NCBI GenBank assembly: GCA_902533755.1
Contig: CACANC010000001.1
Location: forward strand, 3,668 to 67,667
Length of the DNA stretch: 64,000 nucleotides
Direction of reading: 5' to 3'
Source: an uncultured PS1 clade bacterium
GTDB taxonomy: Bacteria; Pseudomonadota; Alphaproteobacteria; MED-G09
This document shows, one piece after another, positions 40,415 to 53,025 of this stretch. The translations under genes were made by a program, and so were the position numbers. Position 1 is the stretch's first letter; every line of letters begins with the position of its first letter. The notes under the pieces are model-generated. The model was given only the letters and a program-made list of their open reading frames with translations, was not told where the DNA came from and ran no database searches.

Positions 40415-40416
40415 AT

Positions 40417-40504
40417 GCGGACATGGTGGAATTGGTAGACACATCAGACTTAAAATCTGAAGGAGATTATCTCCGTCCCGGTTCGAGTCCGGGTGTCCGC
40501 ACCA
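40417..40504 (+). tRNA. tRNA-Leu (anticodon UAA), class II with long variable arm
   Basis: Folded by hand. 7-bp acceptor stem gcggaca/tgtccgc, 3-bp D stem, anticodon stem tcaga/tctga with loop cuUAAaa, variable arm ggaga-ttat-ctcc, T arm cccgg-ttcgagt-ccggg, and encoded CCA. Confidence 0.85.
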
Positions 40505-40514
40505 TTAAAAATTA

Positions 40515-40727
40515 CTATTCTTTTAAATCATCTAAATAATCAATTGCATCAACTAGGTTATAAATAGTACCGCAATATGGACAAATAATTTGTTTATTTT
40601 TTCCCATTTCTAGAGAAACATGAGGATGGTCGTGTGGTTGTGAAGCCCCTATGCATATGAATTTGGTGAATGTAATTTGAATTTCCTTTTTTCCATCATC
40701 ATTAGCAATTTTAGGTAATTCGCTCAT
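40515..40727 (-). CDS. Small zinc-ribbon protein (zf-CHCC / NDUFS6-like)
   Basis: 70 aa. HDHPHV...CPYCG Cys/His cluster is typical of the short zinc-finger proteins of alphaproteobacteria. Confidence 0.5.
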   Translation of the reverse strand: MSELPKIANDDGKKEIQITFTKFICIGASQPHDHPHVSLEMGKNKQIICPYCGTIYNLVDAIDYLDDLKE

Positions 40728-40730
40728 TTT

Positions 40731-46326: not shown

Positions 46327-47694
46327 ATGGAAATTCGATTATATAACTCAAAAAGTAAGAAAAAAGAGATATTTCATCCTCTTGATGATGAAAATGTGAC
46401 TATGTATGTATGTGGCCCGACAGTTTATGGGTCACATCATATTGGCAATGCAAGACCAGCGGTAGTTTTTGATGTATTGGCAAAATTACTAAGAAATAAA
46501 TATAAAAATGTGACATATGCAAGAAACATAACTGATATTGATGATAAAATAATAAATGCTGCTTTAGAGCAAAATGTTGAAATATCTGAAATTACTAAGA
46601 AATCTACAAATCAATATCATTCAGATATGAAAATTTTGAATGTTGAAGAACCTAATAGGGAGCCTTATGCAACACAATTTATTTCTGAGATGATTTTATT
46701 TATTGAGGATCTAATAAAAAAAGATAATGCATACCTTTCTGAAGGACATGTGTTATTTAATATTGATTCTTATAAATCATATGGTGATTTATCTAGCAGA
46801 GATCCTAAAGATATGATTGCAGGCTCAAGAGTTGAAGTTCAAGATTACAAAAAAAATCCTTTAGATTTTGTTTTGTGGAAACCTTCTAATGAAAATGAGA
46901 TTGGCTGGAACAGTCCTTGGGGAAGAGGGCGACCAGGATGGCACCTAGAATGCTCAACTATGATTCTAGAGATATTTGGAAAAACTATAGATATTCATGG
47001 TGGAGGTGAAGATTTAAGGTTTCCTCATCATGAAAATGAGTGCGCGCAGTCATTTTGTAGAAATGATGGTAAGCAATTAGCAAATTTTTGGTTACATAAT
47101 GGAATGGTTCAAATGGCAGACTCCAAAATGTCTAAATCTCTTGGAAATATTATTTTAATTAAAGATTTAATTAACGATATGCCCGGAGAAGTAATAAGGT
47201 TATCTTTAATGAGTTCTCATTATAGACAGCCTTTAAAGTGGTCAGATGAATTAGTTAATCAATCAAAAAAAACATTAGATACTTTTTATTCATTCTTAGA
47301 ACAGTATGAGGATGTTGATATTATCGATGCTAAAATTAATGAAGAAATTCTTACTTCTTTATCTGATGACATTAATACACCAAAAGCAATATCAGTTCTG
47401 CATTCAATATTTAAAGATCTAAAAAAAGATTCTGACAATATTGAGTTAAGGAGCTCATTTATTAAATCTGCCAACTTTATGGGGCTTTTATTTTCAAAGC
47501 CAAGTAATTGGTTATTAAAAGAAGATAATAATGTTGATACAAAAGTAATTGATGGGCTAATTAAAGAAAGAAATCAAGCAAGGCAATCTAAAGATTTTTC
47601 AGCTGCGGATAAAATAAGAAATAAACTTTTAGATATGGGTGTAGTGCTTGAAGATAAGAATGATATTACTACTTGGAAGAAAAAAAATGATTAA
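46327..47694 (+). CDS. cysS: Cysteine-tRNA ligase
   Basis: 455 aa. HIGH (HIGNAR) and KMSKS motifs, plus Zn-binding Cys. Confidence 0.92.
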   Translation: MEIRLYNSKSKKKEIFHPLDDENVTMYVCGPTVYGSHHIGNARPAVVFDVLAKLLRNKYKNVTYARNITDIDDKIINAALEQNVEISEITKKSTNQYHSDMKILNVEEPNREPYATQFISEMILFIEDLIKKDNAYLSEGHVLFNIDSYKSYGDLSSRDPKDMIAGSRVEVQDYKKNPLDFVLWKPSNENEIGWNSPWGRGRPGWHLECSTMILEIFGKTIDIHGGGEDLRFPHHENECAQSFCRNDGKQLANFWLHNGMVQMADSKMSKSLGNIILIKDLINDMPGEVIRLSLMSSHYRQPLKWSDELVNQSKKTLDTFYSFLEQYEDVDIIDAKINEEILTSLSDDINTPKAISVLHSIFKDLKKDSDNIELRSSFIKSANFMGLLFSKPSNWLLKEDNNVDTKVIDGLIKERNQARQSKDFSAADKIRNKLLDMGVVLEDKNDITTWKKKND

Positions 47695-48109
47695 GGATTT
47701 ATACAATACAAATATTTTAAGGTTATCATCAGATATCCCTAGATTAGGAAAGCTTGATAAACCACATTCTTCCTCTACGGTAGTAAGTAAATTATGTGGT
47801 TCTAAAATTACCGTTTATTTAAATATGGAAGATAATATTGTAAATGATTTTACCCATGAAATTAAAGCTTGTTCTCTTGGTAAGGCAGCATCCTCAGTTA
47901 TGGCAAGAAATATAATAGGATCAGGTTCAAAAGAGCTCTTAGAAATAAAAAAAGAAATGTACAATATGCTAAAGGAAAATGGTGCCCCTCCATCTGGAAA
48001 ATGGGAAGATTTGAAATATTTTGAACCAGTTAAGGACTTTAAAGGAAGGCATGCATCTGTTTTATTGGTTTTCGATGCTGTTGAAAATTGTATAAATGAG
48101 TTAAAATAA
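47687..48109 (+). CDS. NifU/IscU-like Fe-S cluster scaffold-domain protein
   Basis: Start placed at MIKDLYN, overlapping the cysS 3' end. Conserved Cys contexts LCGS, KACSLGKAASS and ENC resemble the NifU N-terminal scaffold fold. Confidence 0.55.
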   Translation: MIKDLYNTNILRLSSDIPRLGKLDKPHSSSTVVSKLCGSKITVYLNMEDNIVNDFTHEIKACSLGKAASSVMARNIIGSGSKELLEIKKEMYNMLKENGAPPSGKWEDLKYFEPVKDFKGRHASVLLVFDAVENCINELK

Positions 48110-48349
48110 AAAAAGGGAGCTTTCATCAAGCTCCCTTTAGTTTGACTTAACCGCCCCCGATTAAACCATGATCTTCCGCTACCTTTCTTCAGTGCTCCTT
48201 CTTTTTCAAGACCAGCTTCCTGTTTCTGGCTGGTTTCTATCCAGATATTTCTATCTTTCTTTTCACCATGGATCTTATACCATTCGATCCTCACTGCGGC
48301 TTCTCACCCGCCCATCGGTCATTGGTCATTGCGACCGACAATTAGATTA
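48104..48349 (-). ncRNA. Candidate small RNA, copy A of a paralogous pair (~245 nt, unknown family)
   Basis: Minus-strand σ70-like promoter: -35 TTGATT (48379-48384), -10 TTTAAT (48356-48361), 17-bp spacer. Conserved core gtcggtcgcaatgaccaatg.... Ends in the hairpin gggagctt-gatg-aagctccc plus a U-tract. About 78% identical to copy B on the opposite strand. Confidence 0.5.
48112..48138. terminator. Bidirectional intrinsic terminator (GC hairpin; strong U-tract on the minus strand)
   Basis: Hairpin aaagggagc-tttcatcaa-gctcccttt. On the minus strand it is followed by UUUUUAUUUU. It also sits 3 nt after the NifU-like gene stop on the plus strand. Confidence 0.65.
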
Positions 48350-48383
48350 AAACATAATTATGGATCACAATCAATTATCAAAA

Positions 48384-48412
48384 GTCATTTAGTTGTGGAT
48401 AACTTCATTTTT
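48384..48412 (-). promoter_or_regulatory. Two perfect DnaA boxes (TTATCCACA), direct repeats 20 bp apart
   Basis: tgtggataa at 48384-48392 and 48404-48412 on the plus strand, so TTATCCACA on the minus strand. Located between the thrS stop and the copy-A promoter. Confidence 0.55.
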
Positions 48413-48432
48413 CTGTGGATAAAATAAATTGA

Positions 48433-50343
48433 TCAACTATCTGGTGCAGCAGTTTCTTTAAGAATCAAATCTATACTATCTTGTATGCTAAGTATTTCTT
48501 GTTTTTCTGAGCCAAGTTTTCTGATTGCGACAGTTCCATCATTCATCTCATTAACTCCAACAACAAAAATAAAAGGTATTTTATTTACCGAATGTTCTCG
48601 AACTTTATAATTAATTTTTTCGTTTCGAGAATCTAAAATAACCCTTATTCCTTTTTCTATAAATTTTTCTTCTATCTTATGAGCATATTTATCTGCTTTA
48701 GATGTTATAGTAGCAACCACCACTTGGATTGGAGCTAACCAAACAGGGAACCTTCCTTCATAATGCTCAATTAAAATACCTGTAAATCTCTCTAAACTTC
48801 CTAAAATAGCACGATGAAGCATAACGGGCGTATGTTTTTCATTATCTTCTCCAATATAATTTGCCCTCAATCTTCCTGGCATATTAAAATCAACCTGTAA
48901 TGTTCCACATTGCCATTTTCTACCAATAGCATCGTGAAGATAAAAATCTAACTTCGGTCCATAAAAAGCGCCATCTCCATTATTTATATCAAAGGGTATG
49001 CCTGTTGCTTTAGACGCATTCAAAAGTGCATTTTCAGCTTTATCCCAGATCTCATCTTTACCTACCCTTTGGTCTGGCCTATCAGCATACATTATTGAAA
49101 CCTCTTCAAAACCCAATTCACTATATACATCCTGAAGCAGTTTACAAAAACTTATAGTTTCACTCTCTATTTGATCTTCGGTGCAGAAAATATGCGCATC
49201 ATCTTGAACAAAATTCCTAACCCTCATTAAACCATGCAGTGCACCAGATGGCTCATTACGATGGCATGAACCAAATTCTGCCATTCTCAGTGGAAGATCT
49301 TTATAGCTTTTTATACCTTGATTATATATTTGAACATGGCCTGGGCAGTTCATAGGTTTAATCATCAATTCTCTATCATCAATAATTGTTTTATACATAT
49401 TATCTTTGTATTTATCCCAATGACCTGACTCAACCCATAAATCTTTATCTAAAATTTGCGGTGTTTTGATTTCTTTATATCCTTCTTTTGAAATTTTTCT
49501 TCGAATATAGTCTTCCAACTCTTTATAAATTGACCAACCATTTGCATGCCAAAAAACCATACCAGGTGCAATGTCTTGAAAGTGGAAAAGGTCTAACTCT
49601 TTTCCAATTTTTCTGTGATCTCTTTTCTCTGCTTCCTCAAGAAGAATAAGATGTTTTTTTAACTCTTTTTCAGATGCCCACGCGGTTCCATATACTCTTT
49701 GAAGCATTTTATTATCAGAGCTACCCCTCCAATATGCTCCAGCAATTTTTGTTAATTTAAAAGCTTTTAAGTGCCTAACTGATGTAACATGAGGGCCTCT
49801 ACACATATCAATATATTCATTATGATGATATAGGGCTATAATCTCATCATTGGGAATTTCATTAATTATTTCAACTTTATAAGGTTCATTTCTTTTCTCA
49901 AATGTATCAAGCGCCTTTTTTCTTGTTACAACTTCTCTAACAACACCATAATTTGTTTGAGCTAATTCTTTCATTCTTAACTCAATTTTTTCTAAATCAT
50001 TCTCACTTAATGACTCCTCAAGATCAATATCGTAATAGAAACCATTTTCTATAGTTGGTCCTATAGCCATTTTTGCTTTAGGATATAATTGTTTTAAAGC
50101 ATGGCCAAACAAATGGGCACATGAATGCCTAATTATCTCTATTCCATCTTCATCACTATTTGTGATTAAAACTACATCAGAATCTGCTTCAATTAGCTCT
50201 GATGCATCTACAATTTTTCCATTAAGCATACCAGCAACAGTTGCTTTAGCTAATCCCGATCCAATTGAAGATGCAAGTTCATCAAAATTAATTGGCTTAT
50301 CGAATTCTTTTACTGATCCATCTGGTAATTTTATTTTTGGCAT
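48433..50343 (-). CDS. thrS: Threonine-tRNA ligase
   Basis: 636 aa. TGS domain, class II aaRS core, Zn-binding editing motifs and anticodon-binding domain. Confidence 0.93.
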
Positions 50344-50345
50344 AA

Positions 50346-50591
50346 CTAATTATTTATCTTCTTTTTAATAGGAACTGGATCATATCCATAACCACCCCAA
50401 GGATTACATTTTATAATACGAATAAAGGATAATTTAAAACCATGAAAAAATCCATGTTTTGAAAAAGCTTCCATTGCATAAGATGAACATGAAGGCTCAA
50501 ATCTACAAGACTTACCTAAAAAAGGTGATATTAAATATTTGTACCCCCTGATTAATATAATACATATTTTACTTGCTATACCCATAACCAT
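50346..50591 (-). CDS. yidD: Membrane protein insertion efficiency factor YidD
   Basis: 81 aa. [28 protein letters not shown] is the canonical YidD sequence. Confidence 0.85.
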
Positions 50592-50624
50592 AAAATTAAT
50601 AAGTTATTTATATGCTATAAATTA

Positions 50625-50653
50625 ATTTGTTATTTTATCCACAGAAAAATTGA
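50625..50653 (+). promoter_or_regulatory. Two perfect DnaA boxes (TTATCCACA), direct repeats 20 bp apart
   Basis: ttatccaca at 50625-50633 and 50645-50653. Located 34-62 bp upstream of the yidD start and upstream of the copy-B promoter. Confidence 0.55.
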
Positions 50654-50708
50654 GTTATCCACAAAAAAATAATGCAGCTGAATTGACCAACACTATTTGC
50701 TATGTCTT

Positions 50709-50950
50709 AATAATTGTGACGGTCGTAATGACCAATGGCCGTTGGGCGGGTGATATGCCGCTGTGAGGGTCGGATGGTCTCCGATCCATGGTGAAAGTAA
50801 AGGTAGCAATATCTTGAGGATAGCCAGCCAAAAGACAGAAAGCTGGTCTGTAAAAGGAAGAAGCGCTGGATTAGGGTAGCGAGATATCAGTCTTAATCGG
50901 GGGCGATTAAGTCACACTAAAAGGGAGCTCGATGTGGGTTCCCTTTTTTT
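50709..50950 (+). ncRNA. Candidate small RNA, copy B of the paralogous pair (~240 nt, unknown family)
   Basis: -35 TTGACC (50673-50678), 17-bp spacer, -10 CTTAAT/TAATAAT. Conserved core gacggtcgtaatgaccaatgg.... Conserved internal stem ccagc...gctgg with a variable loop in both copies. Ends in a 10-bp hairpin plus U9. Confidence 0.5.
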
Positions 50951-50954
50951 TTAA
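50921..50954 (+). terminator. Intrinsic terminator (10-bp stem with two G·U pairs, followed by T9)
   Basis: aagggagctc-gatgt-gggttccctt then ttttttttt. Relative to copy A, a t→c change is paired with an a→g change in the stem, which is compensatory. Confidence 0.7.
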
Positions 50955-50956
50955 AA

Positions 50957-52171
50957 TTAACATTTTCCAATTATTCCATTTTCTTCTAATTTATTAATTT
51001 CTTCTGTTGAGTAACCCATTTCACTTAATATTTCTTTGTTATGTTCACCGAGTAGAGGTGCCGGTCCTTTTGGTCCTACATCACTATCATGGAATTTAAC
51101 CGGAGAAGCTAAAGAAAGGTATTTTTCTTCACATTCTGGGTCTTCAATTTCAACAAATGATCCTGCTTCAATAGCTTGTTTGTCATTTGCAACTTCGCTT
51201 AAATTTTGTACAGGCGCCCAAATTAGATCTTCTTTGTCTAATCTTTCACCCCATTCTTCAAGAGTTAATTGACTAAAAGCTTCATCCATAGCTTTTACAA
51301 AGTCTGTAGAGTTAGACCTTCTACCATGATGATTATTAAATCTCTCATCTTCCAACCATTCTTCTCTCCCGATAGCTCTTGCTACTTGAGGTAAATCCCA
51401 ATCACCTCCTGCTCTTGGACTAAGGCATATCCATCTATCATCTTTGGTTTTAAAAAAATTAGCTATTGGATTTATTTGTTCATCTCTTTTTTTTGTTGAT
51501 GGAACTCTTCCAAACCTTAATTGAAGGGCCATATCTGAGCCTATGGAATAAATTCCTGTCCTTAAGAGAGAGCTCTCAACAACTTTACCTTTACCTGTTT
51601 TTTGTCTTTCATAAACTGCAGCTAATATTCCACTAACTGTTGATATTGAGGTGATATGATCTCCAACAGCAACTCTGATAGGTAAGGGCTCTTCACCTTT
51701 TCTCTGAGTTAAATGTGCCATTCCAGATCTTGACCAAAATGCAGCAATATCAAAACCAGGTCGATCTCTTTCTTCCCCGTCAAGACCGTAACCTGACAAA
51801 GAGCAATATATTAGCTTAGGATTAATTTCCAAAAGCGTTTCATGATCAAGTTTTGATTTTTCTAATGATGTAGGTCTAACATTTGTCAAAAAGATATCTG
51901 CATCTTTAATTAATTGTCTAACAATATCAGCACCTTTTTCATTGCTAGTATTTATTGTCATCCCTTTTTTACCTCTATTATCGAGACTAAAGATAGGGTT
52001 ACCTACGATTTCTAATTTTGATTTTGTTCCTTCAAAAAATGATCTCATTGGACAACCTGTCAATGGTTCAACTTTAATAACCTCTGCTCCCCAATCTCGA
52101 AGCATACCACCTGCTCCAGGAGCGGCTACATACGTTGACATCTCAATAACTCTTAATCCTTCTAACATCAT
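50957..52171 (-). CDS. Family III CoA-transferase (CaiB/BaiF family)
   Basis: 404 aa. N-terminal LEGLRVIEMSTYVAAPGAGGMLRDWGAEVIKVEP is typical of CoA-transferase family III. Confidence 0.8.
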   Translation of the reverse strand: MMLEGLRVIEMSTYVAAPGAGGMLRDWGAEVIKVEPLTGCPMRSFFEGTKSKLEIVGNPIFSLDNRGKKGMTINTSNEKGADIVRQLIKDADIFLTNVRPTSLEKSKLDHETLLEINPKLIYCSLSGYGLDGEERDRPGFDIAAFWSRSGMAHLTQRKGEEPLPIRVAVGDHITSISTVSGILAAVYERQKTGKGKVVESSLLRTGIYSIGSDMALQLRFGRVPSTKKRDEQINPIANFFKTKDDRWICLSPRAGGDWDLPQVARAIGREEWLEDERFNNHHGRRSNSTDFVKAMDEAFSQLTLEEWGERLDKEDLIWAPVQNLSEVANDKQAIEAGSFVEIEDPECEEKYLSLASPVKFHDSDVGPKGPAPLLGEHNKEILSEMGYSTEEINKLEENGIIGKC

Positions 52172-52233: not shown

Positions 52234-53025
52234 ATGGAAAATTCTTCTAATAAATTAATACCTGCTTCTACTGTCTTAGTTATTAGAGACGGTGTTGATG
52301 ATATAGAAGTCTTTATGGTTGTAAGGCATCACCAAATAGATTTTGCATCAGGTGCTTTAGTCTTTCCGGGTGGAAAAGTTGACGAAAGTGATCTTAATCC
52401 AGAATTAAGAAGATATGTATTTGCCGAAAAAGAAATTAGTGATCAAGAGTTAAGTTATAAAATTGCAGGAATAAGAGAGTGTTATGAAGAAGCAGATGTA
52501 TTATTTGCATACGAGCAAAATAAGAAAGAAATAATATCAAGTGAAAAATTGGAGAAATTAGCTCAGTGGCGAGATAAATTTAATAACAAAAAGGGATCAA
52601 TGTTTGATTTTGCTGTTAAAGAAAACATTAAATTTAATTTAGACAATTTAATTCCATTTGCACATTGGGTAACCCCAAAAATGATGCCAAAGAGGTTTGA
52701 TACTTATTTTTATCTTGCTGAAGCCCCAAGAGATCATATAGGCAAGCATGATGGAAAAGAGTCTATAGATTCAATTTGGATTTCTCCAAAACAGGCATTA
52801 GAAGACTGTATAGCTGAAAAACGAACTATAATTTTTCCGACAAGAATGAATTTAGAAAAATTATCAAAATTTAGAACTGTTAAAGAAGCCCTTGATGAAG
52901 TTAAAAAAGAAACAGTTATCACTGTTGAACCCAAGATAGAAAAGAATGAAGATGGAGTATTTTTAACAATACCTGAGAAGGCTGGATATGGTCTAATTAA
53001 AGAGCCTATAGAGAATTTAAAATAA
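52234..53025 (+). CDS. NUDIX hydrolase
   Basis: 263 aa. Nudix box (GGKVDE...REcYEEADV). Confidence 0.65.
   Translation: MENSSNKLIPASTVLVIRDGVDDIEVFMVVRHHQIDFASGALVFPGGKVDESDLNPELRRYVFAEKEISDQELSYKIAGIRECYEEADVLFAYEQNKKEIISSEKLEKLAQWRDKFNNKKGSMFDFAVKENIKFNLDNLIPFAHWVTPKMMPKRFDTYFYLAEAPRDHIGKHDGKESIDSIWISPKQALEDCIAEKRTIIFPTRMNLEKLSKFRTVKEALDEVKKETVITVEPKIEKNEDGVFLTIPEKAGYGLIKEPIENLK

Follow-up and report, generated by a model that had tools for sequence, protein, structure and literature searches.

Inverted paralogous copies of a candidate structured noncoding RNA gene with upstream DnaA boxes flank yidD-thrS in a marine PS1 clade alphaproteobacterium

The AbcR genes occur in tandem and specify small RNAs (sRNAs) of about 100-120 nucleotides (nt) that base pair in an Hfq-dependent manner through C/U-rich seeds; IMES-1 to IMES-4, raiA and OLE are large or ornate structured RNAs that came out of comparative and metagenomic analysis; and the Escherichia coli thrS operator and T-box leaders are elements of thrS genes that recognize the threonine transfer RNA (tRNA-Thr). 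In Caulobacter crescentus, the gene for CcnA, a 182-nt cell-cycle noncoding RNA (ncRNA), lies among DnaA boxes and a CtrA box at the origin, and this RNA acts via the CCCC of a hairpin loop, which base pairs with GGGG in the leaders of ctrA and gcrA (PMC8959179). Here we describe a locus that has features in common with each of these systems in a 64,000-nt stretch of DNA from an uncultured PS1 clade bacterium (contig CACANC010000001.1, positions 3,668 to 67,667; hereafter the window), in which two paralogous arms in inverted orientation bracket the genes thrS and yidD. Our reading, to which we assign a probability of about 0.75, is that each arm is a complete ~235-nt structured ncRNA gene outside the catalogued families, its product probably being DnaA-controlled and trans-acting.

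CcnA appears to be the nearest concept, although the likeness would be one of concept and not of family, the two having been compared by description and not by sequence. Both are alphaproteobacterial ncRNAs of similar size, with a gene tied to DnaA boxes and a homopolymeric tetranucleotide in a hairpin loop; unlike CcnA, however, the PS1 locus bears no sign of an origin, has two strong boxes upstream of the -35 element and presents GGGG instead of CCCC, and no TTAA-N7-TTAA motif was noted in its promoter. As with AbcR1 and AbcR2, the genes are duplicated, each copy has its own promoter and terminator, and the diverged paralogs retain their fold, but here they are inverted around an essential operon and specify an RNA that is twice as long, purine-rich and made of six helices with a GNRA tetraloop, and the AbcR families of Rfam gave no match. 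With IMES, raiA and OLE the RNA shares its setting in a GC-rich island of an AT-rich genome, covarying helices, invariant loops, a GNRA tetraloop and a marine uncultured origin, whereas it differs from them in leaving their Rfam models unmatched, in belonging to one alphaproteobacterial group and in having a promoter with DnaA boxes. Like the thrS operator and T-box leaders it adjoins thrS and has a U-GGU hairpin loop and a loop containing ACC/ACCA, but it lies outside the thrS messenger RNA, is oriented away from the operon, has its own terminator and matches no T-box model. It resembles 6S RNA in being a clade-wide stand-alone housekeeping-type RNA of about 200 nt, yet it forms a row of hairpins where 6S RNA is a rod with a central bubble, and 6S RNA was rejected as its identity on this hairpin series and on the unmatched Rfam 6S models.

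The arms span 48108-48432, with the RNA on the minus strand (copy L), and 50592-50952, with the RNA on the plus strand (copy R), and are 78-83% identical. A repeat finder resolved five collinear inverted blocks (I1-I5; 31-133 nt, 76-91% complementarity) that pair 48108-48427 with 50630-50950, pairwise alignment gave a mean column identity of 83%, and BLAST of the two copy types returned an E value of about 1e-65. The reverse-complement paralogy reported in an earlier note on this sequence is thus borne out, as is the enrichment in guanine plus cytosine (GC) that it described: over 150-nt segments the GC content reaches 0.41-0.46 (left arm) and 0.45-0.50 (right arm), compared with ~0.27-0.35 in the surroundings, and the arms have 44-50% GC on a background of 32%. 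That note had also called the arms the only two long spacers; they are the two longest of the window, but a third long spacer, holding tRNA-Leu, comes next at 40415-40730. Copy L points leftward into the end of sufU (+, ending at 48109) and copy R rightward into the end, at 50957, of a family-III CoA-transferase gene (50957-52171, -), and both point away from thrS-yidD, so that each copy does face a convergent coding sequence as had been stated.

The evidence for an RNA is chiefly comparative. RNAalifold applied to 25 homologs, which amount to about five clades, gave a consensus fold of nine helices and 54 pairs, 19 of which show compensatory changes, spread over five helices. Scored against this fixed structure, standard pairs make up 98.3% of cells; 500 column shuffles never attained the observed pairing, number of compensatory pairs or covariation score, and sliding the 3' partners by 1-3 columns left 34-51% pairing and 1-7 compensatory pairs. 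About a third of the pairs have changed on both sides while the controls fall short, as expected of a structured ncRNA, and these comparative data support the view that the conserved core, put at ~240 nt in the earlier note, is a structured small RNA of ~235 nt. The signal is also strand-specific, since 186 cells hold G-U pairs that become C-A on the opposite strand, where just 85% would pair; these cells identify the purine-rich strand as the RNA, in agreement with the orientation of promoter and terminator. Single-sequence folds gave z-scores relative to shuffles of -4.74 for copy R and -3.74 for copy L. We consider it highly probable that the arms belong to a real structured RNA gene family.

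The covariance model matches copy R (50717-50952, +, ~236 nt) with 276.6 bits and the diverged paralog copy L (48108-48340, -, ~233 nt) with 240.2 bits. From the 5' end, helix P1 (50718-50743 in copy R, 48339-48314 in copy L) closes an invariant 10-nt loop, L1, of sequence AAUGACCAAU; P2 (50746-50761, 48311-48296) is an invariant GCGG/CCGC stem; P3 (50767-50787, 48290-48270) carries loop L3; P4/P4a (50789-50826, 48268-48231) ends in a GNRA tetraloop, GCAA in copy R; P5 (50827-50877, 48230-48181) is a long variable hairpin; and P6 (50892-50911, 48165-48146) is the nearly invariant CUUAAUCG-GGGG-CGAUUAAG. The terminator follows at 50920-50952 in copy R and at 48138-48108 in copy L, where it also follows the sufU stop codon. 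Both hairpins with U-tracts that the earlier note had recognized were recovered (50919-50947, +, and 48138-48112, -), and its compensatory changes in the terminator stem were found at three column pairs (291-303, 293-301 and 294-300). A ccagc/gctgg stem that it had singled out is present in the variable domain but is not the best-supported pairing across homologs. The terminator loop sequence is unusually conserved for a terminator.

L1, L3 (UGGUC, or UGGUA in copy L) and the GGGG loop of P6 are invariant among homologs, and the P4a loop is always GNRA (GCAA, GAAA, GUAA or GCGA) above a covarying stem (50800-50815 and 48242-48257 in the window, columns 95-110 of alignment A2), which points to a possible tetraloop-receptor contact in a compactly folded tertiary structure. 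GACCA in L1 and UGGUC in L3 are complementary over 5 nt (50727-50736 with 50775-50779), and in copy L (48322-48331 with about 48278-48282) UGGUA leaves 4 base pairs, so that a loop-loop contact could form between L1 and L3. Invariant loops on covarying stems, together with the GNRA tetraloop, suggest a compact fold with specific partners, and the invariant L1 and GGGG loop are candidate seeds for Hfq-type base pairing. Two alternative pairings between P6 and the terminator are likewise invariant, AUCGGG (50896-50901) with CUCGAU (50928-50933) and GGGGGC (50899-50904) with GUUCCC (50938-50943), which occupy columns 281-286 with 313-318 and 284-289 with 323-328, respectively, of alignment A3. 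A covariation scan for further covarying helices or a supported pseudoknot gave invariant candidates only.

Upstream of each RNA lie two exact copies of the DnaA box TTATCCACA, as had been noticed before: two direct copies at 50635-50643 and 50655-50663 (+), 20 nt apart from start to start, in the right arm, and copies at 48414-48422 and 48394-48402 (-), directly after the thrS stop codon, in the left. The window has five exact copies in all, four of which fall in the two arms, and across 341 kb of fetched loci the exact sequence is almost confined to the region upstream of this RNA. The boxes are unchanged across homologs while the flanking sequence varies, with one box instead of two in the most divergent homolog (L031). 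Each pair is followed by a putative sigma-70 promoter, at 50683-50711 (+) in the right arm (TTGACC at 50683-50688, a 17-nt spacer and CTTAAT at 50706-50711) and at 48374-48346 (-) in the left (TTGATT at 48374-48369, a 17-nt spacer and TTTAAT at 48351-48346), the left-arm geometry being the same as that of the right arm and of the orthologs. The promoter call rests on the -35 element, as TTGAC is positionally conserved 34-35 nt 5' of P1 in every homolog; a -10-like hexamer (TAGAAT, TAAAAT, TTTAAT and others) lies 6-7 nt 5' of P1. Because both elements stand at a fixed distance from P1, the RNA probably starts at the foot of this helix, which would place the start sites at about 50717 for copy R and about 48340 for copy L. 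Each arm thus has the make-up of a stand-alone sRNA gene, with a promoter whose -35 element is conserved, an intrinsic terminator and no co-oriented gene downstream, from which we infer that it is transcribed.

The start of the second box lies 27-28 nt from the -35 element in most homologs and 37 nt from it in the clade of L014, L021 and L026; a run of 9-10 T between the two, seen in these three and in L027 and L037, shifts the boxes by about one helical turn. At these distances upstream of the -35 element, the two exact boxes are positioned as in a DnaA-regulated promoter. Copy L retains both boxes with no divergent gene on its side, and L031 keeps its box at the same distance in a different genomic context, and for these reasons we tie the boxes to the RNA gene and not to yidD. 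That DnaA controls the RNA gene is close to an even bet, if anything a little short of one. The boxes were also considered as DNA sites of other kinds: a replication origin or a box cluster of the datA/DARS type was rejected on there being only two boxes per arm, no AT-rich unwinding element, a GC skew that tracks the gene strand without a switch, and metabolic genes as neighbours. Promoter-like hexamers TGGATA-18-TAAAAT at 48396-48425 (+) and 50661-50632 (-) overlap the boxes but are directed away from the RNA; in the right arm they could drive yidD-thrS, and in the left they would yield an antisense transcript running into thrS from its 3' end. Inside the 3' end of cysS, at 47604-47612 (-), there is a DnaA-like box with one mismatch, TTATCCGCA, in a 30-nt stretch resembling the right arm (repeat I6); as relatives do not conserve it, it was set aside as a third functional box and is probably a chance occurrence.

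At the gathering threshold, Rfam 15 (4227 models) matched nothing in the window but tRNA-Leu; with the cutoff relaxed to E<=10, terminator-hairpin noise was all that the arms gave, and the divergent homologs L031, L037 and L038 gave no match. With no family match, a known housekeeping RNA is not indicated. Transfer-messenger RNA (tmRNA), including the two-piece form of alphaproteobacteria, was sought with ARAGORN, which found only tRNA-Leu in the window, and the alpha_tmRNA model was unmatched, in keeping with the earlier note, which had recognized no tmRNA by eye. A T-box riboswitch was dismissed, with no match at E<=10 and an RNA that runs divergently from yidD-thrS and converges on the next gene. 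A sponge of the CsrB/RsmZ type was likewise rejected, as inspection of the alignment (A2) showed GGA in the purine-rich variable region, unconserved in position or in loops. Terminal inverted repeats of a transposon or insertion sequence do not fit arms that enclose only thrS and yidD and that occur as a single copy at a fixed syntenic site in relatives.

The 25 distinct RNA sequences come from single-cell genomes, metagenome-assembled genomes and metagenome contigs. Ten true homologs were found by an exact-pattern scan for the P6 motif in species-representative genomes, and nine more, including L031, by a second pattern (L1 to P2) over metagenome contigs; as the scans relied on exact motifs, the phylogenetic range is underestimated. 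Contigs with an identical YidD protein carry near-identical RNA copies. The records bear the names PS1 clade, OCS116 cluster, Rhodobiaceae bacterium, or generic Alphaproteobacteria or Pseudomonadota metagenome-assembled genomes, so that the relatives are to be found among PS1/OCS116/Rhodobiaceae-type alphaproteobacteria and not in SAR11, one of the groups that the earlier note had proposed to search. Judged by these sequences, marine PS1/OCS116-type alphaproteobacteria conserve the RNA gene in their chromosomes, and it is specific to them. L031 is the most divergent homolog (322-627, -, 153.7 bits): its RNA is flanked by tRNA-Arg(TCT) and a ybgC-like thioesterase gene, which replace sufU and yidD, with no thrS, and it has an enlarged P5 in which GAAAGCCCUUAGGGGAAAG occurs twice. 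Related ybgC-like loci showed no RNA where that side was covered, a search with thrS for homologous loci gave only matches of at least 93% identity, and no similar sequence was found in viral contigs, plasmids or phages. A literature search found no paper linking the PS1 clade with small RNAs or containing the conserved sequence strings.

Comparison of gene orders shows that the pair is a derived arrangement. In more than 15 independent contigs, with proteins 61-75% identical to those of the window, there is a single RNA copy in the order folE, cysS> sufU> <RNA yidD> thrS> <CoA-transferase. The order sufU> <RNA_L <thrS <yidD RNA_R> <CoA-transferase occurs in four sources only, namely the window, the near-identical contigs L001-L010, the full contigs L002 and L003, and the single-cell genome AG-430-B22 (L025); it is no assembly artefact, as it is seen in independent assemblies. 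Relative to the single-copy loci it is the yidD-thrS operon (48433-50591, -) that is inverted, consisting of thrS (48433-50343, -; NCBIfam TIGR00418) and yidD (50346-50591, -; NCBIfam TIGR00278 YidD). The single copy is the ancestral state, and the pair arose with the yidD-thrS inversion in one lineage, an outcome at odds with the degenerate lineage-specific remnant that had been envisaged should relatives lack the segments: related genomes conserve a single copy. The duplicated unit of ~330 bp reaches from ~14 nt upstream of the first box through the terminator. This unit of boxes, promoter, RNA and terminator would have been duplicated in inverted orientation downstream of thrS, after which yidD-thrS would have flipped, probably via recombination between the copies.

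Copy R, whose flank on the yidD side is that of the single-copy orthologs, shares 92-95% identity with them; copy L is 76-79% identical to all of these sequences, branches as sister to the whole R-type clade, and has its like only in the two-copy arrangement (L002, L003 and L025). Between the same pairs of genomes (L002 and L003 against the window), copy L shows 8 differences and copy R 1 in one comparison, and 3 and 1 in the other. Copy R is thus the ortholog and copy L a faster-evolving, structurally intact paralog, whose depth is due either to an old duplication followed by losses or to acceleration after duplication. Copy L keeps 52 of the 54 consensus pairs (52-54 for the two copies), and substitutions between the window copies affect 14% of paired and 31% of unpaired columns, for which reason both copies look functional; the faster change of copy L suggests weaker constraint or a diverged function.

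Put together, transcription would begin at a TTGAC-N16-17-(-10) promoter 6-7 nt upstream of P1 and end at the U-tract; DnaA would bind the boxes, whose centres lie near -58 and -78, and thereby activate the promoter; the level of the RNA would then track DnaA and replication status, and the folded RNA would use its invariant loops to act in trans on a partner, either protein or RNA. Several points weigh against this account. Shared ancestry within the roughly five clades inflates the covariation counts, and L1, L3, P2 and P6 never vary, which places their pairings and the L1-L3 contact beyond the covariation test. Of the sigma-70-like promoter proposed in the earlier note the TTGAC element stands, by its positional conservation, but the -10 hexamers of the window, CTTAAT and TTTAAT, are weak and fall below the threshold of a consensus scan. 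Start site, transcript length and abundance are all deduced from the DNA. The boxes have the textbook DnaA-box consensus, and it is on this match that they are taken as putative DnaA-binding sites; they could instead serve a divergent yidD-thrS promoter, the TGGATA-18-TAAAAT that overlaps them. Complements of the GGGG loop and L1 occur in the 64-kb window at chance frequency only, and our confidence in any specific partner is low. When the RNA was scanned for duplexes with start regions, the only ones obtained were long-range and implausible.

The proximity to thrS raises the question of whether the RNA is a mimic or sensor of tRNA-Thr that binds threonyl-tRNA synthetase (ThrRS) as the E. coli thrS operator does, but in trans, or recognizes tRNA-Thr in a T-box-like manner. 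The 7-nt U-GGU loop of P3 resembles the anticodon loop of tRNA-Thr(GGU), and ACC/ACCA in L1 corresponds to a Thr codon and the tRNA 3' end; UGGU in L3 and GACCA in L1 are invariant, the stem beneath L3 covaries, so that the loop is presented on a genuine hairpin, and the RNA gene adjoins yidD-thrS in more than 20 loci, the window copies bracketing thrS. The likeness to anticodon loops and to the UGGN/NCCA pairing of T-boxes is one of appearance. Position 37 of the loop, however, is C and not a purine, and L1 and L3 may just pair together. The T-box model remained unmatched even at E<=10, the RNA lies outside the thrS leader, divergent from the operon and with its own terminator, the RNA of L031 has no thrS nearby, and since the whole neighbourhood is collinear the linkage to thrS may be passive; we consider this reading improbable. 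A riboswitch-like element, whose terminator would gate antisense read-through into the convergent gene (in the ancestral order sufU-cysS, and for copy R the CoA-transferase gene), would account for the complex architecture with its GNRA tetraloop and possible loop-loop contact, the conserved terminator loop, the invariant alternative pairing of P6 with the terminator and the convergent downstream gene in three of three contexts. Yet three convergent contexts would arise by chance about once in 8, and the downstream gene varies (sufU, CoA-transferase, tRNA-Arg), which leaves no consistent antisense target; the alternative pairing is without covariation and no riboswitch family was matched, making this reading decidedly improbable. 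That the boxes act as DNA sites, either datA- or DARS-like or in bidirectional control of yidD-thrS, next to a segment that is no functional RNA, is very improbable: they are the most conserved feature and a perfect match to the consensus, with promoter-like hexamers facing yidD overlapping them, but such sites leave unexplained why five helices show compensatory changes and why the G-U pairs are strand-specific. The core of 235 nt is GC-enriched, bounded by a terminator and as a whole part of the duplicated unit. Only two boxes, no unwinding element, no skew switch and ordinary metabolic neighbours also speak against it.

Reading frames in the arms give some occasion to think of a protein-coding or toxin-antitoxin locus, since a 12-codon frame, AUGACCAAU...UGA, is open in all homologs except one, a GUG/UUG frame of 27-52 amino acids (aa), 38 aa with GUG in the sense frame considered, is open in most, and copy L has a 60-aa antisense open reading frame (ORF) that might specify a hydrophobic peptide. 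Variable sites, however, are distributed over the columns modulo 3 as 23/20/21, with no 3-nt periodicity; ORF lengths, frames and ends vary between homologs on either strand, antisense ORFs are not conserved, the 12-codon frame, which lies inside P1-P2, is shifted by a 2-nt deletion in L031, its 'synonymous' changes are compensatory partners of stem P1, and by reading of the sequence no Shine-Dalgarno precedes either frame. Coding therefore seems to us extremely improbable. The arms might finally be the decaying scar of an inversion or mobile element with no function of its own, being inverted repeats around a segment that is truly inverted relative to relatives; this has the slightest chance of all, given a single copy at the same locus in lineages with proteins 61-75% identical, the retention of 52-54 of 54 pairs in both copies, and the lack of a transposase or recombinase at the locus and of any plasmid, phage or viral match. 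Returning to the structured ncRNA gene that we favour, a more specific and in our estimation unlikely version of it would be a new class of compactly folded RNA in the DnaA regulon of streamlined marine alphaproteobacteria, one that uses its GNRA tetraloop and L1-L3 contact in folding, is switched on by DnaA and binds a translation component (ThrRS or tRNA-Thr via U-GGU and ACCA) and couples replication initiation to aminoacylation or translation, the second copy representing early subfunctionalisation.

The surface ocean is widely inhabited by PS1/OCS116-type alphaproteobacteria, of whose regulation, to our knowledge, almost nothing is known. The RNA gene was present in every syntenic contig examined (~25 contigs, from clades with proteins 61-75% identical), and because it is kept at every syntenic locus as a rare noncoding island in a compact genome, it is probably important to the cell. 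We know of few parallels for a stand-alone structured RNA gene behind paired, perfect and phase-conserved DnaA boxes, an arrangement that appears unusual. The locus offers a testable link between replication control and RNA-based regulation, and a clean natural case of an inverted gene duplication that flips an essential operon and leaves paralogs evolving at unequal rates. We regard it as a clade-specific bacterial structured sRNA that stands out for the DnaA boxes at its promoter and for its duplication, in inverted orientation, on either side of an essential operon, and the alignment and covariance model (R1) are sufficient to seed an Rfam family.

The gene order around the arms in the window is folE(-), cysS(+), sufU(+), thrS(-), yidD(-) and the family-III CoA-transferase gene(-). 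The mechanically called SufU/NifU-like ORF (47648-48109, +) begins at a TTG at 47648 and overlaps cysS by 47 nt; sufU in relatives has a 140-aa product, matching an ATG at ~47687 and an overlap with cysS of only 8 nt. The third-longest spacer, 316 nt at 40415-40730, contains tRNA-Leu(TAA) at 40417-40504 (+), with ~225 nt remaining 3' of the tRNA. Beyond the CoA-transferase gene, an ORF of 263 aa (52234-53025, +), which has no match in Pfam or NCBIfam, is kept in all syntenic relatives at 61-100% identity.

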